The position numbers were made by a program, and so were the translations under genes. Under the pieces are notes generated by a model. The model worked only from the letters and a program-made list of their open reading frames with translations. It was not told the DNA's origin and did not search any database. From assembly GCA_003647275.1 (NCBI GenBank), contig QMMN01000010.1:1121-65120 (forward strand): a DNA stretch of 64,000 nt. The letters are read 5' to 3'. How positions within the stretch are numbered: position 1 is the stretch's first letter; each line of letters starts with the position of its first letter. Shown here piece by piece: positions 1-46,276 of the stretch. The stretch is from Deltaproteobacteria bacterium (GTDB lineage: Bacteria > Desulfobacterota > Desulfobacteria > Desulfobacterales > C00003060).

Positions 1-1
1 G

Positions 2-670: not shown

Positions 671-1013
671 TGCTGGTTGATCGTTGTCAGGCGTGCGTTG
701 GTGTGATCTCAAAATCGGTTAATTTAGATAGATAGCAAAAAAAATAGGGCAATGATATCTCGTCCCGTTAGATACTTTGATGGCCATATAGGATGGTATG
801 ATATGTGCATGCATCCAATGGTGAGAGAGTCCCAAATCAACGCTTAATTTATCGAACTGGACTTTACTAACTAATTGAAAATATGGCCACAGTTGACTAA
901 TAACAACGGTCAACTGACTTAATTATTTCTTAATCAGTTATAGAATTACATCCGAAATTGGGAGACTGAATGAAGACCAACAACATAAATTATATAACCA
1001 AGGAGGCACTGTC

Positions 1014-2118
1014 ATGTCACTTGAATTAAAAAGCAGGATCCAATCTCTTCACAATCAACTAGAACAACTCAGGGGTTATCTTTGACATAGATGGAAAGCA
1101 AAAACGGCTTAACGAAATCGAGGCGATTATATCTAAAAAAGGCTTTTGGAATGTTCCAGAGGAAACAAAAGAAATCCTGAAAGAAAGAACGACCCTTTCC
1201 GATACAATTAATGCCTGGCAAAAGCTTCACCATGAACTCGAGGATGCTGGGGTCCTTTTAGACCTTGCCATAGAAGAGGCTGACGAAGCGACTATCCAGG
1301 AAGTCTCTGAAACACTTCAGGCGCTGGAAGATGCCATGAATCAAATGGCTATGGCGCGGATGCTAAGTGGCAAGGACGATGACAAAAATGCCATTGTCTC
1401 GATTAACGCCGGCGCAGGAGGGACTGAAGCTCAGGACTGGGCTGAGATGCTCTTCCGCATGTACGTGCGCTGGGCTGAGCGCAAAAACTACAAAACCAGC
1501 GTAGTGGACTTCCAGCCCGGTGAAGAAGCTGGGATCAAGAGTGTCACTTTTATCGCCAGTGGCCCCTATGCTTATGGTTATTTGAAAGGTGAGACCGGGA
1601 TCCATCGCCTTGTGCGTCTGTCCCCGTTCGATGCCAGTAATCGTCGACACACCTCCTTTGCGTCGGTCTCTGTGTCTCCGGAAGTCAACGAGGAGGTTGT
1701 CATAGACATTGACGAAAAGGACCTTCGCATTGAGACCTTCCGTTCCAGCGGTGCAGGCGGCCAGCACGTCAATAAGACCAGTTCAGCCGTCCGCCTCACA
1801 CATCTGCCAACAGGGATCGTGGTTCAGTGTCAGCAGGAATCTTCACAACACCGAAACAAGGCAATTGCCATGAAGGTCTTGAGGTCCCGGCTGTATGAAT
1901 ACGAACAATCGAAAAGGGCGAATGAAAAGCAAGCGCTTTATGAAAGCAAAGAAGAGATTGCCTGGGGGAGCCAGATCAGGTCCTATACCCTGCACCCTTA
2001 TCAGATGGTGAAAGACCATCGAATCAATCTTGAGATAGGAAACGTCAATGCTGTTCTGGATGGAAACCTCGATCTTTTTATAGAAGGGGTGCTTCTGGCA
2101 ACCAGTCAGCCCCATTAG
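1014..2118 (+). CDS. prfB: peptide chain release factor 2, requires programmed +1 frameshift at 1083
   Basis: ATG 1014 follows an AGGAGG RBS. Twenty-three codons (MSLELKSRIQSLHNQLEQLRGYL) end at the in-frame TGA 1083-1085. The +1 frame continues DIDGKQKRLNEIE... into ORF 1336..2118, which carries SPF and GGQ (SSGAGGQHVNK) motifs. Confidence 0.93.
1071..1086 (+). promoter_or_regulatory. RF2 autoregulatory +1 frameshift site (SD-like AGGGGT, then TAT CTT TGA C)
   Basis: The sequence AGGGGTTATCTTTGAC is almost identical to the E. coli prfB shift site AGGGGGTATCTTTGAC. Confidence 0.9.
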
Positions 2119-2566: not shown

Positions 2567-5142
2567 AGGCCATATATAAGTATAACGTCCTTGCGAAGCT
2601 GCCAGACAGGCTAAAGCCCCTGGAAAGGCTCGCCTACAATTTATGGTTTAGTTGGCACCATGACATCGGCTACCTGTTCAGCCGGATGGACGCTGAGCTC
2701 TGGGAGTCTTCAAAACATAATCCCGTCTATATGCTGGGGGCCATCAGCCAAAAGCGCTTGGAGCAGCTGGCAGAAGATGCAGGCTTTTTGGCTCAGATGG
2801 ACCGGGTTTATGAACAGTTGGAACAGTACCTTTCCGTTCAACCCTCTCCGATCCCTGAAGCCCGGGATCTGGCTCGATTCGGTGTTGCCTATTTTTCGGC
2901 AGAGTTCGGCCTGGCCGAGTGTTTGCCTATTTATTCTGGAGGACTGGGCGTCCTTGCGGGTGACTACCTGAAATCTGCCAGCGACTTGAATTTTCCCGCC
3001 GTAGGTGTCGGCCTTTTTTACCACGAAGGCTATTTTCAGCAGTACTTGAATGCCGACGGGTGGCAGCAGGAAGCCTATCCTGAGAACGATATTTCCACCA
3101 TGCCGGCCAGTCTTATGACAGATGAAAATGGCCAACCGGTCATGGTGGAGGTATCTATACAGGGCGAACCCGTCAAAATTCAGATATGGCGCCTCATGGT
3201 AGGGCGTGTTCCCCTGTACTTGCTCGACACGAATATCAAGGAAAACTCGCCTGAGCATCGTTACATCACCTCGCGGCTTTATGGCGGAGACTGGGATATG
3301 CGACTCAGGCAAGAGATCGTCCTGGGCATTGGTGGCGTCCGCGCACTCCGGGCCCTCGGCGTAGAAGCCTCAGCATACCACATGAATGAAGGCCACTCTG
3401 CCTTTTCTGCCTTGGAACGAATCCGCATCCTCAAAAATGAGCATAGCCTGTCCTTTGATGCTGCAAGGGAATTCGTGGTCGCCACCAATACCTTTACGAC
3501 CCACACACCTGTGCCAGCGGGAAACGACATGTTTTCACCAGACCTTATGCACACATATTTCGAAGATTATGTGCAGTCTCTCGGCATTGCTTTTAAGGTT
3601 TTTTTGGGATTTGGCCGCCAGGAGCCTGGAAACGACCAGGAGACTTTTTCTATGACAGTGCTGGCCTTAAGGCTGTCTGCCCATTCGAATGGGGTAAGCC
3701 GATTACATGCCAGCGTTTCCCGCAACATGTGGCACAAAATCTGGCCCAAGAATCCTATGGAAGATATCCCTATCTACCCTATAACCAACGGGATTCACAT
3801 CCCATCGTGGATTTCGAAAGACATGGCAGAACTCTTTGATCGTTATCTGGGGCCAAACTGGATCGAAGATCCGGACAGCCAGAAGGTGTGGAAACAGGTG
3901 AAACAAATCCCAGATTCAGAACTATGGCGGACCCATGAAAGGCGGCGGGAACGCCTCGTCGCCTTTGCAAGACGAAGGCTGCAGACCCAGCTTAAAAGCC
4001 ATGGCGCATCAGCCCAAGAGCTTGAGACTGCCGCCCAGGTGCTCAATCCGGAAATTCTCACCATCGGATTCGGCCGTCGCTTTGCCAACTATAAACGCGC
4101 AACCCTTATCCTGCAGGACCAGGATCGGCTTGTTAAATTGCTGACCCATCCCGAACGTCCCATCCAGATTATTATAGCAGGTAAGGCCCATCCCCAGGAT
4201 GCCCCAGCCAAGGAGCTTATTAGAAGGATTATCCATTTTGCCAATCTGGAAGAGGTTCGCCATCGGTTTGTATTCATCCAGGACTACAATATCAGGGTGG
4301 CACGCATGATGCTTCAGGGCTGCGATGTGTGGATCAACACCCCCCGGAGGCCCCTGGAAGCGTGCGGTACCAGCGGCATGAAGGCCATCCCTAACGGCGT
4401 GTTAAACTTAAGCACCCTGGATGGATGGTGGGATGAAGGTTATGACCCAAGTTATGGATGGGCCATTGGTCGGGGTGAGACCTATGAAGATCATCACTTG
4501 CAAGACGAGGTGGAAAGCCGAGACATTTACAATCTCTTAGAACGAGAGATCGTACCGCTGTTTTATGACCGAGGCTTGGATAATCTGCCCCGTGGTTGGC
4601 TGGAAAAGATGAAGGCAGCCATGTGTTATCTTTGCCCGATTTTTAACTGCCACCGGATGCTACAGGACTACACCAATCAATGCTACATCAGTGCCTCAAG
4701 GCGATACAATGAGCTTTCAAGAGACGACATGAAGGGTGCCAACGAGCTGGCCCAGTGGCGACAAAAAATCTTGACCAACTGGGACCAGATTCGGATCAAT
4801 CGTATCCATGTGCACGGAGGCACACCTGTGCCGGTGTCGGGTTACCTCAAAATCGGGACCGATATCTTTCTCAATGAGCTTAAACCTGAAGACGTGGATG
4901 TGGATATCTATTTCGGACCATTGAGCTTTAAGGATGAGTTCACGGAAAGAGAGACTATCCAGATGAAAGCTGTGGATTCTGACGGCAATGGCAACCATCA
5001 TTTTGAGGGCGAGATACCATGTACCGAGACAGGCAAATACGGGTTTACTATCAGGGTCATGCCGAGTCGTCAAAAGATGGAAACCCCGTATACCACAGGT
5101 CTGGTGATCTGGGCACAGGACCAGGCCATTGTGAACCCGTAG
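2563..5142 (+). CDS. glgP: alpha-glucan phosphorylase (GT35, maltodextrin/glycogen phosphorylase type)
   Basis: An 859 aa ORF with the motifs YFSAEFGL, YSGGLGVLAGDYLKSASDL and EACGTSGMKA (PLP lysine context). Confidence 0.88.
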   Translation: MKAIYKYNVLAKLPDRLKPLERLAYNLWFSWHHDIGYLFSRMDAELWESSKHNPVYMLGAISQKRLEQLAEDAGFLAQMDRVYEQLEQYLSVQPSPIPEARDLARFGVAYFSAEFGLAECLPIYSGGLGVLAGDYLKSASDLNFPAVGVGLFYHEGYFQQYLNADGWQQEAYPENDISTMPASLMTDENGQPVMVEVSIQGEPVKIQIWRLMVGRVPLYLLDTNIKENSPEHRYITSRLYGGDWDMRLRQEIVLGIGGVRALRALGVEASAYHMNEGHSAFSALERIRILKNEHSLSFDAAREFVVATNTFTTHTPVPAGNDMFSPDLMHTYFEDYVQSLGIAFKVFLGFGRQEPGNDQETFSMTVLALRLSAHSNGVSRLHASVSRNMWHKIWPKNPMEDIPIYPITNGIHIPSWISKDMAELFDRYLGPNWIEDPDSQKVWKQVKQIPDSELWRTHERRRERLVAFARRRLQTQLKSHGASAQELETAAQVLNPEILTIGFGRRFANYKRATLILQDQDRLVKLLTHPERPIQIIIAGKAHPQDAPAKELIRRIIHFANLEEVRHRFVFIQDYNIRVARMMLQGCDVWINTPRRPLEACGTSGMKAIPNGVLNLSTLDGWWDEGYDPSYGWAIGRGETYEDHHLQDEVESRDIYNLLEREIVPLFYDRGLDNLPRGWLEKMKAAMCYLCPIFNCHRMLQDYTNQCYISASRRYNELSRDDMKGANELAQWRQKILTNWDQIRINRIHVHGGTPVPVSGYLKIGTDIFLNELKPEDVDVDIYFGPLSFKDEFTERETIQMKAVDSDGNGNHHFEGEIPCTETGKYGFTIRVMPSRQKMETPYTTGLVIWAQDQAIVNP

Positions 5143-5300
5143 CCCAGAGGAAAAGCCCCCTCCTCAACCCACAGAGGTCTCTAACGCATAAATCAGGCTT
5201 ATAGTGCTCTCTGTTCGTTGATACAAATGACTAAGGGGAGCATCAAATCGTTTACATCGAAACAGGCTGTTACCCAAGCAGCCGTACATTGAAACACCTT

Positions 5301-5316
5301 TGGATTATTTGTTGCA
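5301..5316 (+). promoter_or_regulatory. candidate sigma54 (-24/-12) promoter upstream of the fdhA-like gene
   Basis: TGGATTATTTGTTGCA has the GG and GC elements at the exact TGGCAC-N5-TTGCA spacing. It lies about 39 nt upstream of ATG 5355. The -24 hexamer is only a half match. Confidence 0.35.
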
Positions 5317-5354
5317 AACAATATGATGCTCTCCTTAGTACAAGGCGGTCAATC

Positions 5355-7388
5355 ATGCCCAAGGTTTTGACGACCTGCTGTTTTTGCGCCTGCGGGTGCA
5401 ACTTATATCTTCAGGTCGAAGCTGGAAAGGTCATTGGGGTGACCCCCAGCAGAGAACATCCCATTACCCGGGGAAACCTGTGTCTCAAGGGATGGAACAG
5501 CTTTGAGTTTGTCCATCACAAGGACCGTCTCCGATATCCATTGATTCGAAGAAGGGGCCACCTTGTAGAGGCGGATTGGGAAAAAGCGCTGAACTTGGTT
5601 GCACAAAGGCTGGCCGAGGTCAAGGACAAATATGGCCCCCAATCATTGGGGGTACTCTCTTCTGCCAAGTGTACCAATGAGGAGAACTATCTTCTAATGA
5701 AATTTGCGCGGGCCGTGCTGAAGACCAACAATGTGGACCACTGTGCCCGGCTATGTCATTCTCCAAGTGTCATTGGGCTAAGCAATGCCTTTGGTTCCGG
5801 GGCGATGACAAACGCCATATCAGAGCTTGCCAGCGCCGAGGTCATCTTGGTGACCGGCTCCAATACGACCGAGCAGCATCCCCAGATAGCACGGTTTATC
5901 TTTGATGCCCTGGCAAGAGGGGCCAAGCTGATTGTGGTGGACCCGCGACGTATTCCGTTGAGCAGATTCGCCCATATCTATCTGCAGCCACGCCTGGGGA
6001 CTGACGTGATATGGCTAAACGGCATGACGAAAATCATCCTGGAGGAGGGGCTCCTTGACGATGCCTTTATCAAGATGCGCACTGAAAATTTCAGGGCATT
6101 CAGCGAGATGCTGAAAAACTTTGACCTCGAGCAGGTGGAAGCCATCAGCGGGATCCCCCTGGAAGATCTCCGGATGGCAGCACGGGTGTATGCCGGTGTC
6201 AAGCGGGCCATGATCATTTATTCTATGGGGATTACGCAACACATCTCTGGAACGGATAATGTGCAATCCATTGCCAACCTGGCCATGTTGACCGGGCATG
6301 TGGAACAAAAGTATACCGGGGTCGGACCGCTCCGCGGCCAGAACAATGTCCAAGGGGCCTGTGACATGGGGGCACTTCCCGGAATGTTGTCAGGCTATCA
6401 AAATGTTGCAGACGAGGGCATCAGAAAAAAGTTTGAACGCGTATGGAAGACTGATCTGCCAACAGCCCCCGGTCTGACTGAGATTGATATGTTTCATGGA
6501 ACAGGGAATAAAAAAATTCGGGCGATGTTTGTTATGGGAGAAAATCCGGCACTCAGCCACCCTGATCTTAAAGCAACACGTGCCGCCTTACAAGTATTGG
6601 AATTTATGGCAGTATCAGATATCTTCCTGACAGAGACTGCAGCGTTGGCAGACGTGGTACTGCCTGCGGCTTCGTTTGCTGAAAAGAACGGAACCGTCAC
6701 CAGTACTGAACGCCGTATTCAAAGAGTTCGAAAGGCAGTGTCTCCTATTGGTGCAAGCAGGCCAGACTGGCAGATCATATGCGAACTGGCCTCTCGGATG
6801 AATTACCCCATGGCTTACGAATCCCCGGCAGAGATTATGGAAGAGATCGCCATGCTGACCCCCATTTACGGCGGCGTATATTACGATCGGCTGGAACAGG
6901 GGTGGGGGTTGTTTTGGCCGTGCCCGAACCGAGACCATCCGGGAACGCCCTTTTTGCACAAGGGTTCATTTGTACGCGGGAAGGGACGCTTTGAATGTAC
7001 TCTATATCGTCCTCCTGCAGAAATGCCGGATGAGGCGTATCCGTTTTATCTAACCACAGGACGGATCTCCGAACATTGGCATACGGGAAGTATGAGCAGG
7101 CGGATTACGGCCCTTTCCAGAGAACGGCCAGAGGCATTTGTTGAGATCAATCCACAGGATGCAAAGCGCTTGGGGGTGGCAAACAGGAAACCGGTTCGGG
7201 TCGTTTCAAGGCGCGGAGAAATTACAGTCAAGGCACGCCTTACAGACGATGTTCCAGAAAAAACGGTCTATATCCCTTTTCACTTCACAGAGGCTCCGGC
7301 CAATATCCTCACCCATGGTCACTGCGATCCAGAGGCCAAGATCCCGGAATTTAAGGTATGCGCGGTACGGTTGGAAAAGGTGCAGTGA
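5355..7388 (+). CDS. fdhA: formate dehydrogenase alpha subunit-like molybdopterin oxidoreductase (Cys type, no signal peptide)
   Basis: The N-terminal 4Fe-4S motif is CCFCACGC...CLKG. The fold is FdhF-like MopB, and ARLCHSPSV places Cys where Sec or Cys ligates Mo. The internal ATG 5355 (MPKVLTTCCF) is preferred over the TTG at 5289. Confidence 0.82.
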   Translation: MPKVLTTCCFCACGCNLYLQVEAGKVIGVTPSREHPITRGNLCLKGWNSFEFVHHKDRLRYPLIRRRGHLVEADWEKALNLVAQRLAEVKDKYGPQSLGVLSSAKCTNEENYLLMKFARAVLKTNNVDHCARLCHSPSVIGLSNAFGSGAMTNAISELASAEVILVTGSNTTEQHPQIARFIFDALARGAKLIVVDPRRIPLSRFAHIYLQPRLGTDVIWLNGMTKIILEEGLLDDAFIKMRTENFRAFSEMLKNFDLEQVEAISGIPLEDLRMAARVYAGVKRAMIIYSMGITQHISGTDNVQSIANLAMLTGHVEQKYTGVGPLRGQNNVQGACDMGALPGMLSGYQNVADEGIRKKFERVWKTDLPTAPGLTEIDMFHGTGNKKIRAMFVMGENPALSHPDLKATRAALQVLEFMAVSDIFLTETAALADVVLPAASFAEKNGTVTSTERRIQRVRKAVSPIGASRPDWQIICELASRMNYPMAYESPAEIMEEIAMLTPIYGGVYYDRLEQGWGLFWPCPNRDHPGTPFLHKGSFVRGKGRFECTLYRPPAEMPDEAYPFYLTTGRISEHWHTGSMSRRITALSRERPEAFVEINPQDAKRLGVANRKPVRVVSRRGEITVKARLTDDVPEKTVYIPFHFTEAPANILTHGHCDPEAKIPEFKVCAVRLEKVQ

Positions 7389-8644
7389 TGCCAAACGAGC
7401 TCATTCTAAACAAGGAACACCTTACAGGCTTTTTGCGCAAGATCGCAAAAGAACGTGAACTGATCGCGCCGATAAAAAATTCATATGGGGATACGCTCTT
7501 TGAAGTCATCTCCTCTGTGGATGATGTCTCTCTTGACCTGGAAAGCAGACCGGCCATGCCTCCCAAGGATTTCTTTTTACCTCCCACCGAGACACTGTTT
7601 AACTACCAGCGTGAAGGGAAACAATATCGGTTTGAGGAAGTTCTTCCTGATGTGTCAAGGGTCTTATTTGGTCTGCGTTCCTGCGATTTGTGGGCCATTC
7701 TGTTCCTTGACGTGGTATTCCAGGAAAACTTTAAAGACCGATACTATTTAAACAGACGAAGTAACACCATATTGATCAATATTGGGTGCCATGAACCGAT
7801 GCTGAACTGCTTTTGCAAAAGCGCAAAAAGCGGACCTTTTCTGACGCAAGGATACGATCTGCAGCTCACAGACCTGGGGGACCGATTTTTTGTCGAAGTC
7901 GGACGGCCCAGGGGCAGAGAGTTGGTTGACAAATGGGACTATTTTTTCACCTCGGCAACCCAAAAAGATCGGGACGAACAGTATGAGATCGTCCTGGAAG
8001 CGGAGAGCAAATTTGGGCAGACCGTTGATCTTGATATGGCAACCTCCCGACTCATCAATCATGAGGTGGACGACGCCCTGTGGGAGGAACTCGGGAACCG
8101 TTGCCAGGGGTGCGGGGGGTGTGCCTATGTATGCCCCACGTGTTACTGCTTTAATATTGTAGACCGGCCCGTGTCAGAAACTCAAGGGGAAAGGGTCAGA
8201 ATGCACGATGCGTGTACCTTGGCCGGATTTACCCGACTTGCGGGCGGTTACAATCCACGCCAGGAAAGAAGCCGTCGGATTCGAAGGCGCTTTTATCACA
8301 AACTCCCTTTTGCCATAGAGAAATACCATCGTCCCAGCTGCGTGGGATGCGGTCGGTGTATGGAAATATGCTTTGGCCGTGTTGATATGATTCACTTTAT
8401 CAAAATGGTTTGTGAGCGAGGTAAAAAAGCATCTCAAGAAGCCTCTTTGAGGTTAGGAGAAATTCTTGTCCAGGCTGGACTTATAAGCCGTGAAGAACTC
8501 AAGGTCGCCCTTGAGAAACAGGCTGACACCGGTAAGCCACTTGGCATACAGCTCATAGAAGACGGATTGACCACAACGAAAGAGATTGCCCTCGCCCTTG
8601 GTTGTCAACTGAGGATCCCGGAGACAGCGGGAACCGAGGGATAG
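7388..8644 (+). CDS. 4Fe-4S dicluster electron-transfer subunit (AsrA/HydB-like) with C-terminal MshEN/T2SSE_N-type domain
   Basis: TGATG overlap with fdhA. Cys clusters are CQGCGGCAYVCPTCYC and CVGCGRCMEIC. The C-terminus reads RLGEILVQAGLISREELKVALEKQ-ADTGK-PLGIQLIEDGLTTTKEIALALGCQ. Confidence 0.8.
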   Translation: MPNELILNKEHLTGFLRKIAKERELIAPIKNSYGDTLFEVISSVDDVSLDLESRPAMPPKDFFLPPTETLFNYQREGKQYRFEEVLPDVSRVLFGLRSCDLWAILFLDVVFQENFKDRYYLNRRSNTILINIGCHEPMLNCFCKSAKSGPFLTQGYDLQLTDLGDRFFVEVGRPRGRELVDKWDYFFTSATQKDRDEQYEIVLEAESKFGQTVDLDMATSRLINHEVDDALWEELGNRCQGCGGCAYVCPTCYCFNIVDRPVSETQGERVRMHDACTLAGFTRLAGGYNPRQERSRRIRRRFYHKLPFAIEKYHRPSCVGCGRCMEICFGRVDMIHFIKMVCERGKKASQEASLRLGEILVQAGLISREELKVALEKQADTGKPLGIQLIEDGLTTTKEIALALGCQLRIPETAGTEG

Positions 8645-8672
8645 CGGTTTCGCTATTACAGAGGAGGTCTAT

Positions 8673-9536
8673 TTGGAAGATAGGGCTCAGACATTAGTAC
8701 GGAAGATGGTGCCCAATATTTATCAACCCTATCCTGTCTCCGTTCATGGGGTGAAGGAAGAAACCGGGGATATCAAGACCTTTACGCTTGGTTTCAAAGA
8801 CCAAGAAATACAAAATCGCTTTACTTTTCGACCAGGCCAATTTGTTTTGGTCTCTGTATTCAATTGTGGCGAGGCGCCTATCTCCATATGTTCATCCCCC
8901 ACGTTTTCCAAAGGCTTGCAGTTGAGTATAAAAAAAATGGGCCTTTTGACTGGAGAGATACATCGCTACACCGAGGGGGACGAAGTTGGTTTACGGGGGC
9001 CGTATGGCAATGGCTTTCCTCTGGAACAGCTTTGCGGCCACGACCTTTTGTTCGTTGGAGGCGGGATCGGACTAGCCCCCTTGCGCTCTCTCATCCAATA
9101 TGTCCTTTCCAAGCGATCGCAGTTCGGAGGGGTCACCATCCTTTACGGGGCAAGAACCCCTCAGGATATTGTCTTTAAGGACGATTTGGCTGCCTGGGAC
9201 AAAGAAGAAGATGTTCAGGTAACAACCACCGTGTACCGGGACAATCCAACATGGAAAGGAGAGGTTGGTCCGGTGACACGTTTGCTGGAAAAGGCTACAA
9301 TATCTCCTTCAAACACAAAGGCGATCATATGCGGCCATCCGGCTATCATTTCTTATGTGGTTTTCGATCTGCTAAAGATGGGATTTGCTGAAGAGGATAT
9401 TATCACCACCCTTGAGAGAAATATGAAATGTGGCGTTGGCAAATGCGGCCATTGCAGCATAGGAAGCAAATTCACTTGTATGCACGGTCCAGTTTTCACC
9501 TATCGAGAGATTAAGACATTCCCTACCGGGTTCTGA
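8673..9536 (+). CDS. FAD/NAD(P)-binding oxidoreductase subunit with 2Fe-2S cluster (AsrB/HydG-like)
   Basis: TTG start 5 nt after a GAGGAGG RBS. It has ferredoxin-reductase motifs (RPGQFV, GGGIGLAP) and a terminal CGVGKCGHCS motif. Confidence 0.8.
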   Translation: MEDRAQTLVRKMVPNIYQPYPVSVHGVKEETGDIKTFTLGFKDQEIQNRFTFRPGQFVLVSVFNCGEAPISICSSPTFSKGLQLSIKKMGLLTGEIHRYTEGDEVGLRGPYGNGFPLEQLCGHDLLFVGGGIGLAPLRSLIQYVLSKRSQFGGVTILYGARTPQDIVFKDDLAAWDKEEDVQVTTTVYRDNPTWKGEVGPVTRLLEKATISPSNTKAIICGHPAIISYVVFDLLKMGFAEEDIITTLERNMKCGVGKCGHCSIGSKFTCMHGPVFTYREIKTFPTGF

Positions 9537-9863
9537 GGTTGATAGCCCCTTGTTTCGGTCGTGTCCGTTGATACTTGTTCTGCCAGGATGGTTTCATTGC
9601 CGAAATCCTAAACGTCGTTCATTCAGATAGATACCAACAGAGATACAGGCGGCCTCATATCGTTCCTTCCCGTTTAAAACATATAGATAGAATTAACTAT
9701 TTACGGGCTGCTGCTCAAATCGCGACAATACAAATGTTTAATGGTCTTTTACTCTTTGAAGGCTGAATGTATAGCTATCTGGGCAATAGCCTGGTTACAA
9801 CTGACAACAGCCAACCAACATCGAGGATTGACATGGAGTGCACACGTGCTTTAGACATAACGC

Positions 9864-10697
9864 ATGATCCTGTCGTTCCATCCGCGTGTCAAAGGAGATG
9901 TGAATCTCCGGCTGACCTTAAAAGGGTCCTTTTCGGACAAAGAGATCAGGCTGATTGGCTCAGCCCGCGCCATTGTGGTCACACAAAGCATTAAGGCCCA
10001 CCAATACGCATTCTGTCGAACCCATTGTGCCAATCTTTTCCCTGATTATACCTACCGATTTGGTTTTGAAGGAAAATACGGCAATATTCAGCTCTTGCGG
10101 ACATTCAATGCCCCCCATCCTAAAACCACCTGCTACGAATCAGTAGAAGACTTTAAGATTCGCCATTTCAAGAATCATGAGCCACTCATGTCGTTCCCCT
10201 TTGTGTTAAAAGGAGACCGGGGTGGCGGCGGCTGGGCGGTTTTCCTTATAAGAAACGAGCATGACCTCATAAGGCGGCTTAAGATCCTGGCCGATGAGTC
10301 CCTGCATGCGACCAAGCGTTTCATCGCCCAGACTTTTGTCCCTCACCGCGGAAGGGACCTGCGGGTGGTGGTTATTGGCAGGATCACGAAGGCCTACTGG
10401 CGGTGTCAGCACAAGCCGGGGGAGTTTCGAAATAATGTGGGCAGGGGTGCAGTGATCAATTATGACCTGGATCCTGAACTAAAAAACAAGGGAATAAAGT
10501 GTGTGCAGGATTTGTGCTCAAAGACAGGCATCAATTTGGCCGCCTTTGATGTGTTGTTTGACCGGAATCAACCGGAGCCAGAACCACTTCTTTCAGAGAT
10601 CAATTTTCTGTTTGGTCGTAAGGGCCTGGGGGGTTCTCCGCGTTTCTATGAACTCCTGAACCACGCCGTTCAACAATGGACAAGGGAACTGCGATAA
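9864..10697 (+). CDS. ATP-grasp family protein (RimK-like ligase fold)
   Basis: A 277 aa ORF with FVLKGDRGGGGWAVFLI, FIAQTFVP, GRDLRVVVIG and a FRNNVGRGA motif. Confidence 0.65.
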   Translation: MILSFHPRVKGDVNLRLTLKGSFSDKEIRLIGSARAIVVTQSIKAHQYAFCRTHCANLFPDYTYRFGFEGKYGNIQLLRTFNAPHPKTTCYESVEDFKIRHFKNHEPLMSFPFVLKGDRGGGGWAVFLIRNEHDLIRRLKILADESLHATKRFIAQTFVPHRGRDLRVVVIGRITKAYWRCQHKPGEFRNNVGRGAVINYDLDPELKNKGIKCVQDLCSKTGINLAAFDVLFDRNQPEPEPLLSEINFLFGRKGLGGSPRFYELLNHAVQQWTRELR

Positions 10698-10721: not shown

Positions 10722-11138
10722 CTACCCGTGCGCTTGATGAGATCCTCGATTCCTCATATAATCGTCCAGGGCCGCCTGTAAGGTCTCAGCAGCCAGGCTA
10801 GCACAATCCATATGGTCTCTGGGAAGACCACCCATGGATGCCTGGATAAGATCAGCGTCAATGGCCAGGATCTCATCCGGGGTTTTCCCCTTGGCAAGAT
10901 CTGCGGCAGCACAAACACAGTTTAGACTATAAACGCATCCATTGGTCTGGTAAGAGGTCTCTGCGACGCGATTTCCGGCAAATGTCAGGCGGATCTCCAT
11001 GGTGTCTCCACACCTTCCTGTCACACACGCTTTCCCGTCGGCCTTTTCTAAATGGGGATTCAGCCAGTAATAAACAAGAAACCATGCCACCACGATGACA
11101 ACAAGGACCCCGCCTGCAATAAGCATATTTGAGCACAT
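10722..11138 (-). CDS. membrane-anchored NifU/IscU-like Fe-S scaffold protein
   Basis: An N-terminal TM helix is followed by IscU-type motifs (CGDTMEI, NGCVYS, HMDCASLAAETL). ATG 11138 overlaps the apbE TAA by 1 nt; the longer ORF to 11198 would overlap apbE by 60 nt. Confidence 0.65.
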   Translation of the reverse strand: MCSNMLIAGGVLVVIVVAWFLVYYWLNPHLEKADGKACVTGRCGDTMEIRLTFAGNRVAETSYQTNGCVYSLNCVCAAADLAKGKTPDEILAIDADLIQASMGGLPRDHMDCASLAAETLQAALDDYMRNRGSHQAHG

Positions 11139-12178
11139 TAAGCCGAAGGCCACCCGTTCGACATAACTCTTGCCCCGGTGGAACTCAAGATCAGACATTC
11201 AGTCCCTGGCACATTTTCTATAAATTTCTTGCCCGCTAAGGGCCCTAAAACAAAACCTGTTGTGGAAAGGGCATCGGCATCCATCGTATTACCAGCCAGG
11301 ACGGTCACACTGGTGCTTTCAAGCGGCGAACGGCCTGTTTCCGGGTTTACAATATGATGGTATAGCTTTTCCTGATCAAAATAGACCTCGTAGTTACCGG
11401 AAGTGGCAATGGCGCCATTCACCATGGTGATGGTGTCAACATAGGGGCCTTCCTTATCGGGATTTTGAATCGCCACCTTCCACGGGATCCTGCTATCCTT
11501 ACCGCCAATGGCTCGAATATCCCCGCCAGCATTAATCAACGCATGTTTCATTCCATGTCGTTCGATCACCTTGGCTCCACAATCAATGATGTACCCCTTG
11601 GCGATTCCATCTAAGGTAACACCCATTCCGTCTTTGGCAAACCGAATGGTATGCCCATCGAACCGGATCTGACTGGCATCTACCAGGTCAAGGACCTTGG
11701 CTAATTCGGCCTCGGACGGAGGGGCCTGATGAGTCGCAAAGTGCGCCTTATAGAAATCAACCAGCGGCTTTACGGTGATGTCAAAGGCACCGTTGCTGGC
11801 CTTATGAAAATAGAGCGAACGGGCAATGACCTCTGACACTTCCAGGGGAAGGTCGGAGATATAGCCGTCCCGGTTGAGCATTCCAATGGCCGAAGCTGAC
11901 TGGTAACGATTCACCAACCGGGCAACCCGATCCATCTCTTCAAAGGCCATCCCGATCACCTCTTCGGCCTCGGCCTTTGAGGGGTGCATCACGGTAATCG
12001 CTGCAAAGGTCCCCATGGAAAGCCGCGCCCTGGTTACTTTATACAGTTTTCTGTTGAAGGCCACACTCTCTGAAACCGGCATCAAGCCACCAAAGGCAAA
12101 TCCCATACCAAGAATGCCTGAGTATTTCAGAAAGGTTCTTCGGTCCATGGTTCGATGGTTTTCTTCTTGAGCATACAT
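11138..12178 (-). CDS. apbE: FAD:protein FMN transferase (flavin-trafficking protein)
   Basis: Tat-type signal (DRRTFLKYSGILGMGFAFG) plus ApbE motifs (LDGIAKGY, ATSGNYE). A GGGGGA RBS precedes ATG 12178. Confidence 0.85.
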   Translation of the reverse strand: MYAQEENHRTMDRRTFLKYSGILGMGFAFGGLMPVSESVAFNRKLYKVTRARLSMGTFAAITVMHPSKAEAEEVIGMAFEEMDRVARLVNRYQSASAIGMLNRDGYISDLPLEVSEVIARSLYFHKASNGAFDITVKPLVDFYKAHFATHQAPPSEAELAKVLDLVDASQIRFDGHTIRFAKDGMGVTLDGIAKGYIIDCGAKVIERHGMKHALINAGGDIRAIGGKDSRIPWKVAIQNPDKEGPYVDTITMVNGAIATSGNYEVYFDQEKLYHHIVNPETGRSPLESTSVTVLAGNTMDADALSTTGFVLGPLAGKKFIENVPGTECLILSSTGARVMSNGWPSA

Positions 12179-12324: not shown

Positions 12325-13194
12325 TTAAGAAGCTACGGCTTCTTTTGCCTTTTCCATCCTTTCCTCAAGGTGGAATGGTTGCACGACATGGATTATATCG
12401 CAGGCCTCTATACAGATTTCCTTGCAAGCAGGTCCGTATTCCATGCATTTGTTCTGGTCGATGGTTACCACACCATCCACCTCAGAGATCGCATTGGCCG
12501 GGCATTCCCTGATGCAGGCCCCACAATGAATACACCCGTTCTCGCAGATGGTTCGCGTGACTTTACGGCTATCCTTGGTGCTGCACCGGATCAGTACCCG
12601 GGCGTTCCTGGGGACCAAGCTGATAATCCCTTTAGGGCAGGTCTTGACACATATGCCGCAGCCTACACAGAGATCTTTCGTGATAACCGGGAAATTGTCC
12701 ACCATGGTGATCGCGTCAAAGGGACAAGCTTTGGCACATTCCCCAAATCCAACGCAGCCGTACTGGCACTCCATGGGACCGGCAAAGGCCAGATCCGCTC
12801 CAGAGCACGCCCCATAGCCGATATAGTTATATTTTTTGTGTACGTGTCCCTGGACCCTGGAGCAGTGGACAGCGGCTACGAGGTCCTCGACGGCGCCTGG
12901 TTTCTTTCCCGTAATTTCAGCCACGGCATCAGCCACTTCCTTTTTGCCAGGAAAACAGAGATTTGGTGGAACATCTGGTTCGGTCACCACAGCTTCGGCG
13001 TATGCTTCACACCCGGGGAAGCCGCACCCGCCTCATTGCGCCCCGGCCAGGGTCTCCTTCACCTCTTCAATCTTGGGATTAATTTCCACCGCAAATTTAT
13101 GGGCGGCCAGGGCAAGCCCAATACCAAAGAACAGGCCGATAACGCCGAGGACGGTCAAGCCACCAAGGGCTAATTTGACTAATGCTGGATCCAT
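12325..13194 (-). CDS. rnfB: Rnf complex subunit B with in-frame TGA (13033-13035) at a conserved Cys position; putative selenoprotein
   Basis: ATG 13194 with a GGAAGGGA RBS opens MDPALVKLALGGLTVLGVIGLFFGIGLALAAHKFAVEINPKIEEVKETLAGAQ. This is followed by TGA and then, in frame, GGCGFPGCEAYAEAVVTEPD... running into ORF 12325..12990, which carries several 4Fe-4S ferredoxin motifs. Confidence 0.7.
12990..13024 (-). other. candidate bacterial SECIS-like hairpin downstream of the rnfB UGA
   Basis: An imperfect hairpin starts 9 nt after the UGA. The outer stem is CGGCUUC/GAAGCUG and the inner stem is GGGUGU/AUACGCC with a bulge, folded by eye. Confidence 0.3.
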
Positions 13195-13216
13195 ATACGT
13201 TCCCTTCCTTGTTTAA

Positions 13217-14176
13217 TCAGAAAATCGACATGCCTGAAAAGCCCAGAAAGGCCAGGGCGAAAAGCCCTGCCACGACAAAAGCAATGGGCAGCCCTCTGAA
13301 CGTGGGCGGCACATTAGCCAGTTCCAGCTTTTCCCGTACAGAGGACATCAAAAACAGTGCGATCAAAAATCCTGTCCCGGCTCCGAGGGAAAGCATTAAG
13401 CTCTCCCATGCATTGTATTCGTTGTCTGCCAGTATCAGGGGAACCGCTATGATGATGCAGTTTGCAATGACAAGGACAAGGTACACTCCAAACGCCTTAA
13501 ATAAGGCAGGGTTGACCTTCCTTAAGATGGTATCCACCGCCTGGACTGAAAGGGAAACCAGTCCGATAAAGACAACCACCTGTAAGAAGTCGAGGTGGTA
13601 GGGTTTCAGGACAAACTGGTAGAGAAACCACGACATCATGGAGGCAAAGACAATAACAATCGTAAAGGTTATGCCCATTCCGACAGCCGTTGTCTTCTTC
13701 TGAGAAGTGCCGAAAAACACGCAAAGGCCTAGATACTTGGTAAAGACAAAGTTATTAATGATCATTGCCCCGATTAGAATAGAAAAGAGATACCCAAAAT
13801 AGAGCTTCTTCACCGTTAGGATCGCTGTCCCCTGGGACCTTCCTGCAGACATCATTTCTGTGACGGTTAAGATATGGGCTTGGTCCTGGTTCAGAGCATC
13901 TTCAAAGGTCAGGGTTACCGTTCTCTTATCAGGGCTCAGGGCGATGTCGGTAATTTTCAACAGGATGTCCGGGTCTTGTTTTTCGTAAACCGAATAGTTG
14001 GCCACATCTTTTGCCCAGGTCTCATCTACAGGCCCTGCAAAGGTCATCACAACCTTGTTTTTGTCCTTGAACGCGACCTTTTTGACAAAACGATGTTCTG
14101 TTGCACATCCGGTTAAAAGGAGTACCCATATAAAGAACGTACACACCAGTATATGATGCCGTCTATCCATTCTCAT
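13217..14176 (-). CDS. rnfA: Rnf complex subunit A with an N-terminal lipoprotein-type extension of about 125 aa
   Basis: The C-terminal 190 aa or so is canonical RnfA (INNFVFTKYLGLCVFFG..., AFVVAGLFALAFLGF). The N-terminus has a signal plus lipobox (LLLTGC) and a beta-rich domain. ATGA overlap with rnfE. Confidence 0.8.
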   Translation of the reverse strand: MRMDRRHHILVCTFFIWVLLLTGCATEHRFVKKVAFKDKNKVVMTFAGPVDETWAKDVANYSVYEKQDPDILLKITDIALSPDKRTVTLTFEDALNQDQAHILTVTEMMSAGRSQGTAILTVKKLYFGYLFSILIGAMIINNFVFTKYLGLCVFFGTSQKKTTAVGMGITFTIVIVFASMMSWFLYQFVLKPYHLDFLQVVVFIGLVSLSVQAVDTILRKVNPALFKAFGVYLVLVIANCIIIAVPLILADNEYNAWESLMLSLGAGTGFLIALFLMSSVREKLELANVPPTFRGLPIAFVVAGLFALAFLGFSGMSIF

Positions 14177-14793
14177 AACCCTTTTTTCCTTCGGTTATAA
14201 ACGACTTCTATATAGTTGAACATCGCCATCATGAGGCCAACCAAAAAGAACCCTGCGGCCGGGAGGGCAAAGAAAAGGAGCGGTCGGAAACCGAGGATAT
14301 CATACCCTAAGAGCGTGCCCATCCCCAAAAGCTCCCGGACAAAACCGAGGGTCATCATCGCAAACATAAACCCGAGTCCCATGCCAAGACCGTCCCAGAA
14401 GGAGGCGGTGACCGTATTCTTGCAGGCAAACATCTCCAAACGCATGGTAATAATCGCAAAGGCTACGATTAACTTTACAAAGATACCCATGGCCTTATAT
14501 GCCACCGGGACATAGGCGGCCAAAACCAGGTCGATCACCGTGACCCATGTGGCGATGGTCAGCGTATAAGTGGGGATCCGGATACGGGGGTGAATGTAAT
14601 CCTTAATGAGTGCGATGGTACAACTCGAAAAAACCTGTACGAAAAGGACGGCGATCCCAAGGAGGAGGCCGTTCATAACGCTTGTGCTGATCCCCACAGC
14701 CGGGCACATCGAAAGGGCCAAACGGAAGATCGGGTTCTCATTTAGGATGCCGTTAACAAACAGTTCTTTGTTCGTCTTAGTTGTAGGTGCCAA
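14173..14793 (-). CDS. rnfE: Rnf complex subunit E
   Basis: RnfE/NqrD family (NGILNENPIFRLALSMCPAVGIST). TTG 14793 with an AGGGAG RBS is preferred; the GTG-initiated ORF to 14847 would run into a repeat element. Confidence 0.8.
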   Translation of the reverse strand: MAPTTKTNKELFVNGILNENPIFRLALSMCPAVGISTSVMNGLLLGIAVLFVQVFSSCTIALIKDYIHPRIRIPTYTLTIATWVTVIDLVLAAYVPVAYKAMGIFVKLIVAFAIITMRLEMFACKNTVTASFWDGLGMGLGFMFAMMTLGFVRELLGMGTLLGYDILGFRPLLFFALPAAGFFLVGLMMAMFNYIEVVYNRRKKGL

Positions 14794-14822
14794 TCTCTTT
14801 CTCCCTGCACGAAGTCTACGTT

Positions 14823-14950
14823 GTGAAGCCTCCCTGTGTTTCTGCACAGGGGCCCTGCCTTACGGCAGTGCTTTGGCGTCCGGGGAGCAAGCCGGTCAAA
14901 ACTGATAGGCCTTTCGGTTCGCAGAGGCGTGAGTCACCCCGGACAGTGAA
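14823..14950. repeat. hairpin-rich intergenic repeat, type Y, copy 1 (between rnfG and rnfE)
   Basis: GTGAAGCC, then hairpin CCCTGTG/CACAGGG, then CTGCC-TTAC-GGCAG, then GCGTCCGGGGAGCAAGCCGGTCAA. This is shared with 49053.., 51587.. and, inverted, 26533... Confidence 0.7.
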
Positions 14951-14959
14951 ACCTTTATA

Positions 14960-15874
14960 CTAAAAGGTTACTGCAATATGTTGACTTGCGATCACCTTGT
15001 TCAGCTTACCCATGCGGTATGCAAACTTTTTTATGATATTTTTAACACCATTTGTCACCGACCTACTGGAGATGGTCGCCCCGGTTAGGGCATAGATATC
15101 ATGGTCTTGATATTTGCTCCGTATGCTTTCAATCTCTTGTTCGGAAAACATGCCTTTTTTCCATTTCTTTGTCTCCAGGTATCTTTTATACTTATCCGGG
15201 AGGGGTTCCTTGATAACTTTGAGCCTCTTCACCTTCTCAAAGGACTTTCCTTTAAACTGATTCTTAAAATATTCCTGTTCGATCTCAGCACCCAGCCCTG
15301 GGTCTTCCTCGTGTTCCATGATCTCCAGGCCAAGGATTTTGAAGTTTGGATCCAAGGCCAACATGACCGAGATGAATGTCTTGAAACCAGGAAATTCACC
15401 AGGAAGCAGGTAGGCCAATTGCTTATCCCCCAGCCTGGCAATGATCGTGGTATCAGCGTAGGTAAAGGTCTTTGGATGCCTTAGCACTGTTTTCAAGGCC
15501 GTCTCACGTTCTCCTTCTTCAATAGCTGCTTCGGGTGAGATGGGCACCTCAAGCTTCTCTACGAATTTCCCTGCCAGGTTAATCACCACCAACTCGTAAC
15601 CCTCTGTAGCCCCCTTTTTTACGGGGACCATGTATCCGATGTACTTCGCCTCTCCATCTTCAATAATATAGCGGTATACGCTATGAAACCTAAGGTCTGA
15701 AGGAGCGGGATTGGCCTTGGTGTATCCCAGCAAAGCAAGCATGGTCTCCTGCACATTTAGATGTTCGTTGTGCTTCTTAGCTTTGGCAGTTATGGTAAAG
15801 ACCAGCCCCATGATTGAACCAGCAATCAGACAAGAAATGGTCAGGCCTATGGTAATTCGTAGGATCTGCTTCAT
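14960..15874 (-). CDS. rnfG: Rnf complex subunit G (FMN-binding), longer than usual (304 aa)
   Basis: N-terminal TM helix and the FMN_bind motif ALTGATISSRSV. ATGA overlap with rnfD. Confidence 0.82.
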   Translation of the reverse strand: MKQILRITIGLTISCLIAGSIMGLVFTITAKAKKHNEHLNVQETMLALLGYTKANPAPSDLRFHSVYRYIIEDGEAKYIGYMVPVKKGATEGYELVVINLAGKFVEKLEVPISPEAAIEEGERETALKTVLRHPKTFTYADTTIIARLGDKQLAYLLPGEFPGFKTFISVMLALDPNFKILGLEIMEHEEDPGLGAEIEQEYFKNQFKGKSFEKVKRLKVIKEPLPDKYKRYLETKKWKKGMFSEQEIESIRSKYQDHDIYALTGATISSRSVTNGVKNIIKKFAYRMGKLNKVIASQHIAVTF

Positions 15875-16938: not shown

Positions 16939-16965
16939 CCTGGTCCTCTTGTTATTTCATAGCTC

Positions 16966-17096
16966 TTCAGGGAGTAAGGAATACCGCTGAACGTAGGCAT
17001 CCAGTCCCATTTCCAGCAAGGATAACAGCCCAGCGACTAAAGACATTGGATGCTGAGGAGAAGTGGTTGTCCTTACCCCAGATGCTAAACGATTAC
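16966..17096 (-). repeat. structured intercistronic repeat, type X, copy B (between rnfC and rnfD)
   Basis: Homologous to 12203..12317 and begins 1 nt after the rnfC stop. It carries a 25-nt insertion that can pair internally (GCATCCA/TGGATGC). Confidence 0.75.
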
Positions 17097-17097
17097 G

Positions 17098-24713: not shown

Positions 24714-24714
24714 C

Positions 24715-31153: not shown

Positions 31154-31154
31154 T

Positions 31155-46116: not shown

Positions 46117-46214
46117 ATATCGTTGAAGGGCAAACCTCCCGAAAGGTAGGGGCGCAAAGCTTCCGGTCTAAATCCCCCTGATGCGGATAGGACAGCGGGG
46201 CTACCAAACGATAG
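46117..46214 (+). promoter_or_regulatory. c-di-GMP-I (GEMM-I) riboswitch aptamer
   Basis: GAAGGGCAAACCUCCCGAAAGGUAGGGGCGCAAAGCUUCCGGUCUAAAUCC...GGACAGCGGGGCUACCAAACG aligns block by block with V. cholerae Vc2 (CAGGGCAAACCAUUCGAAAGAGUGGGACGCAAAGCCUCCGGCCUAAACC...GGUAGCGGGGUUACCGAUGG). P1 is UAUCGUU/AACGAUA. Confidence 0.88.
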
Positions 46215-46221
46215 CAAGGAA

Positions 46222-46257
46222 CAGCCTGCTTCTTTCCTTTCGAGAGCGGCTTTTTTT
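46222..46257 (+). terminator. intrinsic terminator forming the riboswitch expression platform
   Basis: The GCCTGCT...AGCGGC stem is followed by T7, 20 nt before ATG 46277. Confidence 0.6.
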
Positions 46258-46276
46258 AGGGCCAAGGAGGTGGATC

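Follow-up and report, generated by a model that had tools for sequence, protein, structure and literature searches.

A C-terminal MshEN_N domain on the electron-transfer subunit of a predicted cytoplasmic formate dehydrogenase in uncultured Desulfobacterota: a candidate site of c-di-GMP control

The FdhA–β–γ operon

The DNA described here, referred to as the window, is a stretch of 64,000 nucleotides from a Deltaproteobacteria bacterium of the order Desulfobacterales (assembly GCA_003647275.1, contig QMMN01000010.1, positions 1,121 to 65,120 of the forward strand). Three consecutive genes in the window encode the catalytic subunit (FdhA), an electron-transfer subunit (β) and a flavin- and iron–sulfur-containing subunit (γ) of a predicted formate dehydrogenase (FDH), and the β subunit ends in a domain of the MshEN_N type, a family known for binding the second messenger cyclic diguanylate (c-di-GMP). 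The coordinates of these and the other features are collected in Table 1, and all positions refer to the window.

FdhA scores 815.8 bits against the TIGR01591 Fdh-alpha model, above the equivalog cutoff of 666.25, and also matches Molybdop_Fe4S4, Molybdopterin and Molydop_binding in Pfam. Its active-site motif, HCARLCHSPSV, contains Cys134 (codon 5754–5756), which aligns with the in-frame TGA (selenocysteine, Sec) of relatives, identifying the protein as a Cys-type enzyme. No twin-arginine translocation (Tat) signal was found in FdhA, whose Fe4S4 Cys motif opens the N-terminus directly, indicating that the enzyme is cytoplasmic. The stop codon TGA of FdhA and the ATG of β overlap by 1 nt, in agreement with a preliminary description of the window, which had proposed a Cys-type FdhA translationally coupled to the iron–sulfur subunit.

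The β open reading frame (ORF; 7388..8644, forward strand) encodes 418 residues and ends in RLGEILVQAGLISREELKVALEKQ-ADTGK-PLGIQLIEDGLTTTKEIALALGCQLRIPETAGTEG followed by the stop codon. Homologue lengths and Cys spacing place the start codon at 7388 rather than at the upstream ATG at 7358. The core of β resembles the sulfhydrogenase β subunits ShyB and HydB and the sulfite reductase-type protein AsrA (NCBIfam E-values 1.4e-58, 9.4e-58 and 1.9e-43, respectively), and the sole Pfam match in the whole protein is Fer4_22 (7.8e-29). However, with 198.5, 195.8 and 149 bits the matches fall well short of these families' equivalog cutoffs (690, 750 and 323), and the upstream partner is FdhA; β is therefore a distinct FDH-associated paralogue with a fold homologous to HydB/ShyB/AsrA. 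The closest solved relative of the core is the β subunit of Pyrococcus furiosus sulfhydrogenase I (9nez_B, 4.7e-48 in a phmmer search of the Protein Data Bank, PDB), and a Foldseek comparison of the full-length β model with 9nf0_B gave a template-modelling (TM) score (target) of 0.89 and a root-mean-square deviation (rmsd) of 2.6 Å.

The γ subunit, described beforehand as a flavin adenine dinucleotide (FAD), NAD(P) and 2Fe–2S protein, proved to be just that, matching PRK08345 (3.9e-80), ShyC (4.1e-67) and AsrB (2.9e-60) as well as NAD_binding_1 and DHODB_Fe-S_bind in Pfam. It starts at a TTG codon preceded by a GGAGG Shine–Dalgarno sequence. A promoter and terminator scan of positions 5000–10000 gave promoter signals no better than those of shuffled sequences. 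The gene order FdhA–β–γ is kept in all tailed loci examined and in dozens of loci in which β has no tail (Desulfobulbia, Nitrospirota and others), while remoter β–γ pairs (35–41% identity) are mostly without an adjoining FdhA-type gene. Genome papers have noted the tail-less FdhA–HydB–HydG triad and hypothesised that it works, linked to NAD(P)H, as a cytoplasmic CO2 reductase or FDH feeding the Wood–Ljungdahl pathway; no biochemical characterisation of it was found in the literature.

The β tail is an MshEN_N domain

The stretch 8450..8608 corresponds to β residues 355–407 and forms a block of 53 residues, in which two 24-residue motifs are separated by a 5-residue spacer; both this block and the C-terminal sequence, as quoted in the preliminary description, agree with the translation of the ORF. 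Motif I conforms at all fixed positions to the strict MshEN motif, RLGxx(L/V/I)(L/V/I)xxG(L/V/I)(L/V/I)xxxxLxxxLxxQ, again as had been claimed, and this strict motif occurs once in the six-frame translation of the window, where 2.2e-6 occurrences are expected. Motif II retains L39, G40, L43, I44, G47, L58 and Q61 (MshE numbering, here and below) and departs from the motif only at R38→P and L49→T. It had been called a degenerate copy, a term that hardly holds, as the same two positions are non-consensus in the GSPII-B domain of Thermus thermophilus PilF, whose dissociation constant (KD) for c-di-GMP is 6 nM. The tandem layout ascribed to the tail on the model of MshE was likewise found: the spacer has the same length and the alignment to MshE residues 8–65 is gapless. 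The four glycines G357, G364, G386 and G393 of β are equivalent to G11, G18, G40 and G47 of MshE, and Q378 and Q407 to Q32 and Q61, all of which are present.

The NCBIfam model NF053729.1 (c-di-GMP_motif, MshE-related) matches residues 355–405 with 50.7 bits in the context of the whole protein (curated cutoff 38) and with 55.1 bits (E 4.7e-15) when the tail is searched alone, and it also matches all 31 family tails tested (E<=1e-5). In phmmer searches of the PDB, the tail matches four GSPII stretches of T. thermophilus PilF (3.6e-17), the isolated c-di-GMP-binding domain of PilF (5.8e-6) and Vibrio cholerae MshE (5HTL, 1.1e-5); among NCBIfam entries, further alignments cover the MshEN region at the C-terminal end of NfrB (482–538) and the N-terminal end of EpsG, with a weak one to PilB. 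Just 11 residues follow motif II, leaving no MshEN_C (T2SSE_N1) subdomain, and the tail thus falls outside the full MshEN/T2SSE_N family.

The dedicated hidden Markov model (HMM) scoring above its cutoff, the MshE and PilF matches in the PDB, the predicted fold and the conservation in about 39 clusters of homologues (see below for the last two) together support the identification of the last ~65 residues of β as a genuine MshEN_N domain, a regular MshEN family member in its 'MshEN_N only' form. The same evidence bears out the central claim of the preliminary description, that an MshEN-type module is fused to a HydB/AsrA-like iron–sulfur subunit. The domain is grafted onto the natural C-terminus of a sulfhydrogenase-β-like electron-transfer protein, and its GC fraction (0.51) is close to that of the remainder of the gene (0.49). 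Public records label the tailed β merely as a '4Fe-4S dicluster domain-containing protein', the tail going unannotated because Pfam T2SSE_N misses the MshEN_N-only form.

A profile built from the tails recovered 31,820 representative proteins from 1.84 billion, and the closest relatives elsewhere, as seen in an alignment-seeded search, often carry PF05157. These exhaustive profile and alignment-seeded searches returned mainly multi-repeat or short stand-alone MshEN_N proteins and no other redox fusion. A word-indexed homologue search with the 74-residue tail alone gave no match.

Predicted structure

An AlphaFold2 model of the tail alone, built on an alignment of 31 tails, comprises four helices with a mean predicted local distance difference test (pLDDT) score of 82, rising to ~90 over the core; a helix spans residues 347–362. 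The best 13 Foldseek matches of this model in the PDB are all GSPII/MshEN domains, with weak E-values that reflect the shortness of the domain. The model superimposes on c-di-GMP-bound PilF GSPII-B (8pfa) with an rmsd of 1.4 Å over 52 columns at 46% identity, and on MshE (5htl) with an rmsd of 1.5 Å over 54 columns. It also matches the PilB(N)–PilZ complex (7lkm/7lko). In the AlphaFold2 model of full-length β (pLDDT 88.4), one helix runs across residues 334–362, joining core and tail; pLDDT is 76 over the junction block (residues 341–350) and below 50 for residues 413–418.

Distribution and evolution of the tail

The occurrence of the tail was followed in the best 120 homologue clusters of β. 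The tail is present in 39 clusters, whose proteins have 409–432 residues and are 46–99% identical to the window protein, while the remainder, the majority form of ~345 residues, ends 2–15 residues past the last Cys cluster; the question raised beforehand, whether orthologues carry or lack the extension, thus has the answer that both forms exist. Tailed clusters come from NCBI, JGI, ENA and Logan assemblies, and over the 53-residue core the alignment of their tails is free of gaps. MAGs (metagenome-assembled genomes) with a tailed β include GCA_049323255.1, GCA_035529315.1 and GCA_054040535.1. When one genome per GTDB species is counted, a tailed β occurs in just ~10 MAGs, all from uncultured Desulfobacterota.

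The tailed clusters fall into two groups. Clade A comprises 24 clusters, 61–99% identical to the window protein, with labels of Desulfobacterales, Desulfobacteria and Thermodesulfobacteriota MAGs plus one Anaerolineae; clade B comprises 15 clusters that are 46–51% identical, with Thermodesulfobacteria-type labels. In clade A, G11, G18, G40, L10, L25 and L58 are invariant and G47 is present in 23 of 24; Q32 and Q61 are both present in all 24, position 1 of motif I is R or K in 20, and the spacer keeps T35 in 22 and G36 in 23. Clade B has M, L, V, I or T at position 1 throughout and Ala in place of G11 in 5 of 15; Gln is found at Q32 in 5 and at Q61 in 6, and 8 members have no terminal Gln at all. 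The tails of clade A (P0002–P0024) share a C-terminal peptide predicted to be disordered, QL(K/G)IPE(x)AGTGG..., which clade B lacks and which might serve in docking.

Purifying selection acts on the tail. Among the seven sequence pairs that are unsaturated at synonymous sites, the ratio of nonsynonymous to synonymous substitution rates (dN/dS) over the 53 codons of the tail is 0.05–0.24 in six and 0.77 in the L008–L009 pair, which offers few sites; the corresponding values for the core are 0.12–0.20. In a neighbour-joining tree of the β core, clade A and the tail-less P0025 and P0026 form one group with 100% bootstrap support, within which the latter two are sister to P0022–24. Clade B is monophyletic (99%), and A and B together receive 46%. 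The two clades are similar in linker length and share an unusual Pro at position 1 of motif II (14 of 24 in clade A, 10 of 15 in clade B), from which we infer that the tail was gained once. The tail-less P0025 gene is genuine and is followed by γ 26 nt on (L085, Logan SRR34261229 contig: β 61–1101, γ 1127–2017). A Desulfobacterales chromosome (L036) in which β is 83% identical over residues 1–187 only was considered as a natural truncation and rejected, as a masked N-run interrupts the gene.

Two further observations concern the tailed loci. The Cys-type FdhA co-occurs with the well-formed MshEN_N tail, the active-site residue being Cys in all nine clade A loci and in the window; an in-frame TGA (Sec) codon stands at this site, HCARL*HAPTV, in three of three clade B tailed loci and in 32 of the 39 loci that have an FdhA-type active site but no tail, the other seven being Cys. 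In addition, clade A includes a 72% identical β in an Anaerolineae-labelled MAG (P0019/L086, GCA_035529315.1), with a SelB gene ~5 kb downstream, which reflects either mis-binning or horizontal transfer outside Desulfobacterota.

Ligand-binding determinants

The MshEN_N subdomain of V. cholerae MshE (residues 1–62) binds c-di-GMP by itself with a KD of 0.35 µM, and the 'MshEN_N only' class is defined by the lack of MshEN_C/T2SSE_N1 (Wang et al. 2016). In MshE, the G11L and G40I substitutions abolish binding and mutations of hydrophobic residues cost more than 10-fold, whereas changes of R9, D12 or Q32 cost at most 5-fold. In PilF GSPII-B, position 1 admits K, R or L, and the K167L variant binds at 2 nM; the single substitutions Q190E and Q218E cost 77–158-fold, and the double mutant abolishes binding. 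Motif II of PilF GSPII-B itself has Leu at position 1 and, as read from the PDB alignment, Pro at the position of L49T, and the relaxed motif of Wang et al. 2016 permits P at position 1.

The window tail keeps R9, L10, G11, G18, L25, L29, Q32, L39, G40, G47, L58 and Q61, and by sequence comparison it has every residue that the published mutagenesis requires. The strongest internal evidence comes from comparing the clades. The clade B fold tolerates the loss of Q32 and Q61, so that folding does not depend on the glutamines; that both are invariant in clade A, while they drift in clade B, points to selection for ligand contact in clade A. An earlier scoring of clade B as degenerate for lack of Arg at position 1 was dropped, since Leu at this position binds even tighter, and the clade was rescored on Gly and Gln.

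Comparison with known systems

MshEN of V. cholerae MshE (5HTL) and GSPII-B of T. thermophilus PilF (8PDK/8PFA) have the same tandem 24-residue motifs, 5-residue spacer and Gly, Gln and hydrophobic contacts as the β tail, and its predicted four-helix fold lies within 1.4–1.5 Å of both. Position 1 of motif II is Pro in the window tail, Arg in MshE and Leu in PilF. In MshE and PilF, the module sits at the N-terminus of an ATPase of the type II secretion system (T2SS) or type IV pilus (T4P), whereas here a subdomain of 53 residues only is found at the C-terminus of a redox protein. The preliminary description noted that the module normally sits N-terminally on such ATPases; a C-terminal placement as such is not unusual, however, as NfrB and a TrxB–MshEN_N protein provide precedents.

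[quoted passage not shown] However, NfrB is a membrane-bound glycosyltransferase family 2 (GT2) enzyme for exopolysaccharide, a classic c-di-GMP output, and has a full MshEN (N+C), whereas in the FDH the putative sensor is on the electron-transfer, not the catalytic, subunit of a soluble multi-subunit redox enzyme. Among the 'MshEN_N only' proteins of Wang et al. 2016 are Acaryochloris AM1_1657 (UNK-TrxB-MshEN_N), Methylobacillus EpsG and Bdellovibrio Bd2402; the first is a redox-type (TrxB) protein with a C-terminal MshEN_N of the same class as the β tail, in a fusion that is uncharacterised. No Fer4_22, HydB/AsrA or formate dehydrogenase partner appears in the MshEN census of that study.

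As for the enzyme itself, the β–γ part of P. furiosus sulfhydrogenase I (9NEZ/9NF0) and AsrAB have a homologous β core together with γ, and presumably the same wire of NAD(P)H, FAD, 2Fe–2S and [4Fe–4S] centres. They differ in their partner, which is the NiFe hydrogenase α–δ or AsrC rather than FdhA, and neither sulfhydrogenase I β nor AsrA has an MshEN tail. The same three-gene module is found in Desulfurivibrio dismutans (RS03135–03125, an FdhA–HydB–HydG triad), although the triad β subunits are ~345 residues long and have no tail. In such triads, FdhA is mostly of the Sec type, whereas the window clade is tailed and uniformly of the Cys type.

c-di-GMP context and neighbouring genes

The c-di-GMP riboswitch that had been proposed at 46117..46214 was found at nearly the same position (Table 1). 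It lies directly upstream of a FliD-like flagellar cap gene and overlaps its longest ORF (46181–47551), suggesting that the real start of this gene is probably further downstream. In the specificity region, AAGGGCAAACC, G rather than A stands at every candidate specificity position, and by the G20A rule the riboswitch is presumably of the c-di-GMP rather than of the cyclic GMP–AMP (cGAMP) type. Its presence speaks for c-di-GMP signalling in this organism, as the preliminary description had also concluded.

Just downstream of the FDH operon there is a RimK-family ATP-grasp gene (9864–10697, forward strand); its score of 54 bits lies below the family cutoff, 143.4. The RimK of Pseudomonas is among the proteins that c-di-GMP modulates. 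Farther along lie NifU-like and ApbE genes, a complete rnf operon, a PhsA/Psr-like molybdopterin oxidoreductase, possibly a cytoplasmic Mo enzyme with coupling to Rnf, and two paralogous sCache_3-PAS histidine kinases. None of the RimK-like, NifU, ApbE, RnfB and GlgP-like neighbours is conserved around other tailed operons. At a single clade B locus (L003, GCA_054040535.1), a gene of the response-regulator–GAF–HD-GYP type (HD_5; 1–1277, reverse strand) lies ~6 kb upstream of the tailed operon and possibly encodes a c-di-GMP phosphodiesterase.

Table 1. Features of the FdhA–β–γ operon, the β tail and the surrounding window
Feature	Positions	Strand	Basis or remark
FdhA α subunit, catalytic molybdo/tungstopterin formate dehydrogenase, 677 aa	5355..7388	+	TIGR01591, active-site motif
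β core, residues 1–344, HydB/ShyB/AsrA-like poly-[4Fe–4S] electron-transfer protein	7388..8419	+	NCBIfam, Pfam
Linker, residues 345–354, GKKASQEASL	8420..8449	+	Predicted helical, continuous with last core helix and tail α1
MshEN_N motif I, residues 355–378, RLGEILVQAGLISREELKVALEKQ	8450..8521	+	Strict motif match, gapless against VcMshE R9–Q32
Spacer ADTGK, residues 379–383	8522..8536	+	TG pair conserved, cf. MshE spacer KNTGR
MshEN_N motif II, residues 384–407, PLGIQLIEDGLTTTKEIALALGCQ	8537..8608	+	Motif comparison
C-terminal peptide LRIPETAGTEG and stop codon	8609..8644	+	Predicted disordered
γ subunit, 287 aa, FNR-like FAD/NAD(P)-binding domain and C-terminal 2Fe–2S domain, HydG/ShyC/AsrB-like	8673..9536	+	NCBIfam, Pfam
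NifU-like gene	10722–11198		After rnf operon
ApbE	11138–12178		After rnf operon
rnfCDGEAB operon, complete	12325–18519	-	
DmsB-like 4Fe–4S protein	18566–19078	-	Directly precedes rnf operon
PhsA/Psr-like molybdopterin oxidoreductase	19164–21251	-	Aligns from PhsA residue 41, Tat-signal region lacking
Phosphonate-type periplasmic binding protein	21753–22688		Flanks first sCache_3-PAS kinase
sCache_3-PAS histidine kinase 1	22698–24713	+	Flanked by binding protein and response regulator
Sigma54 response regulator	24616–26103		Flanks first sCache_3-PAS kinase
Second periplasmic binding-protein paralogue	30257–31153		Precedes methyl-accepting chemotaxis protein (MCP)
MCP	31134–32813		After second binding-protein paralogue
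sCache_3-PAS histidine kinase 2	37274–39346	-	Paralogue of first kinase
c-di-GMP-I (GEMM-I) riboswitch, RF01051	46119..46208	+	73.6 bits (gathering cutoff 35), model 1–87/87

Proposed mechanism and alternative explanations

FdhA, β and γ would together form a soluble cytoplasmic formate:NAD(P)+ oxidoreductase or CO2 reductase, in which the presumed electron path runs from NAD(P)H through the FAD and 2Fe–2S centres of γ and the [4Fe–4S] chain of β to the Mo/W-pterin of FdhA. In the mechanism proposed here, monomeric c-di-GMP would bind between the two 24-residue motifs of the tail, for which the N-terminal turn or turns of α1, preceding and including RLG, would have to unwind, as in the transition from apo to holo PilF GSPII-B. 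This unwinding would break the helix that couples the bundle rigidly to the core, ~26 residues past the distal Cys318–328 cluster, and the four-helix bundle would be repositioned, altering electron transfer or subunit assembly. Control, whether activation or inhibition, would thus be exerted by a C-terminal MshEN domain on the enzyme of its own polypeptide, as demonstrated for E. coli NfrB.

The three parts of this proposal are held with decreasing confidence. First, judging from the residues retained, the window tail probably binds c-di-GMP in a physiologically relevant way. Second, that such binding allosterically controls the soluble FdhA–β–γ formate:NAD(P)+ oxidoreductase or CO2 reductase, as the analogy with NfrB would suggest, is a reading on which we find the arguments for and against evenly poised. 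Third, the more specific idea that c-di-GMP acts as a direct gate on the flow of electrons through a cytoplasmic, NAD(P)-linked FDH/CO2 reductase, via unwinding of the helix between MshEN_N and the distal [4Fe–4S] region of β, draws on the structural models and is offered as a tentative possibility.

Several observations weigh against the proposal. Concerning the domain itself, Pfam PF05157 (T2SSE_N), the check suggested in the preliminary description, gives no match in β even at E<=1, because the model spans MshEN_N and MshEN_C and the tail, being of the MshEN_N-only form, is without the second half; as the MshEN-specific NCBIfam model does match, we do not count this outcome as refuting the identification. 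A motif match is moreover insufficient for binding, as PilF GSPII-A mutated to the full consensus still fails to bind, its stabilised N-terminal α1 extension occluding the site, and in the predicted structure of β α1 reaches much farther towards the N-terminus, running on into the core helix. Apo PilF159–302 (GSPII-B), too, has an extended α1, the first turn of which unfolds on c-di-GMP binding, which speaks for the proposed switch; the continuous helix between core and tail, however, may be an over-prediction by AlphaFold. Concerning the family, T or Q replaces R/K at position 1 in 4 of 24 members of clade A, P0018 has G47R, and L010 (QYQD01000069.1, ~7054–7272) has a 10-residue insertion in the 5-residue spacer (EKQAATGHATGRFAVAKKPLG), which should disturb the four-helix bundle and may mark either a natural loss-of-binding variant or an assembly error. 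The nesting of P0025 and P0026 within the tailed group indicates that the tail was lost at least once and that the enzyme works without it, and clade B retains its tail although many polar contacts are lost, indicating that something other than the binding of c-di-GMP can maintain the domain. Finally, those window ORFs of 130 residues or more that were scanned yielded no GGDEF, EAL, HD-GYP or PilZ gene.

Alternative explanations fall, by the weight we give them, in the order docking module, recruitment, another cyclic dinucleotide and artefact. The tail may have the MshEN fold without nucleotide binding, whether lost or never acquired, and act as a protein docking or oligomerisation element, e.g., as a tether to a partner or in an (αβγ)n assembly. 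For clade B this is the favoured explanation, the tail being kept there although 8 of 15 members lack both terminal Gln and 5 of 15 have G11A. Non-binding MshEN homologues are documented in XpsE and PilF GSPII-A (cf. the GspE/XpsE N-domains), the Foldseek match to PilB(N)–PilZ recalls that the N-terminal domain of Xanthomonas PilB binds a PilZ protein, and the conserved IPExAGTGG peptide after the clade A domain, predicted to be disordered, could dock. However, clade A retains all known c-di-GMP contacts, including both Gln in 24 of 24, which the fold does not require, the c-di-GMP-motif HMM scores well above its cutoff, and the predicted geometry is that of the ligand-bound structures to within 1.4–1.5 Å, and we consider a pure docking role unlikely for the window tail.

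Another explanation accepts that c-di-GMP is bound, on the same evidence as ours (NF053729, PDB matches, conserved residues and fold), but makes its role spatial: the FDH would be recruited to a partner or location, such as a diguanylate cyclase or an Rnf-like membrane complex, or would act as a local c-di-GMP sink, with turnover unchanged. Recruitment had been named as an option in the preliminary description, NfrB does act in a local signalling complex with its dedicated cyclase DgcJ, and the window has an Rnf operon 3 kb downstream. Nevertheless, there is no conserved partner gene, as the flanks of the tailed operon differ at every locus, and the model predicts a rigid, continuous helix at the junction in place of a flexible tether, which suits conformational coupling better; a purely spatial role thus appears rather improbable. 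A further explanation is that the domain binds a different cyclic dinucleotide in place of c-di-GMP, such as 3′3′-cGAMP, which some Deltaproteobacteria use. Geobacter-type Desulfobacterota use cGAMP with GEMM-Ib riboswitches, and position 1 of motif II is Pro rather than the guanine-stacking Arg, Lys or Leu. Against this, motif I and both Gln are canonical, the window riboswitch carries G instead of A at its candidate specificity position, the characterised MshEN domains in the literature examined all bind c-di-GMP, and the NfrB domain is not outcompeted by other nucleotides, making a different dinucleotide very improbable. That the tail is an artefact, i.e., a strain-specific frameshift (named in the preliminary description as a refuting outcome), a stop-codon read-through or an assembly chimera, is refuted: nothing was found in its favour, the tail-less form of ~345 residues being simply the majority, and it is contradicted by the ~39 tailed clusters from four sources with their gapless alignment, by purifying selection, by normal GC and by a confidently predicted fold.

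Novelty and implications

Full-text literature searches returned no paper on MshEN and formate dehydrogenase together, nor, for MshEN and oxidoreductase, anything of relevance, and the supplement of Wang et al. 2016 lists no Fer4, ferredoxin, hydrogenase or reductase fusion that matches this architecture. The preliminary view that the architecture had not been characterised is consistent with these searches: the domain and the chemistry are known, whereas the architecture and the implied target are new.

The known outputs of c-di-GMP are dominated by motility, adhesion, exopolysaccharide and secretion. To our knowledge, few central catabolic or redox enzymes carry a direct c-di-GMP receptor, and we know of no redox enzyme complex shown to be controlled by c-di-GMP in this way. 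Here, a well-understood, high-affinity receptor module sits on the electron-transfer subunit of an FDH and is conserved and selected in uncultured relatives of sulfate reducers. The system comes with natural controls, namely tail-less orthologues, one nested secondary loss (P0025/P0026) and a sister clade with eroded binding residues, and it illustrates an annotation gap, Pfam T2SSE_N being blind to the MshEN_N-only form.

If the tail is functional, the repertoire of MshEN_N would be extended to oxidoreductases, and, more speculatively, the aggregate or biofilm state would be linked to formate/CO2 redox chemistry in anaerobic sediments. Should the proposed control be true, the second messenger that governs the choice between planktonic and aggregate or biofilm life would regulate C1 and redox metabolism post-translationally in uncultured Desulfobacterales, with a reach that would include entry into and exit from the Wood–Ljungdahl pathway and possibly interspecies formate exchange.

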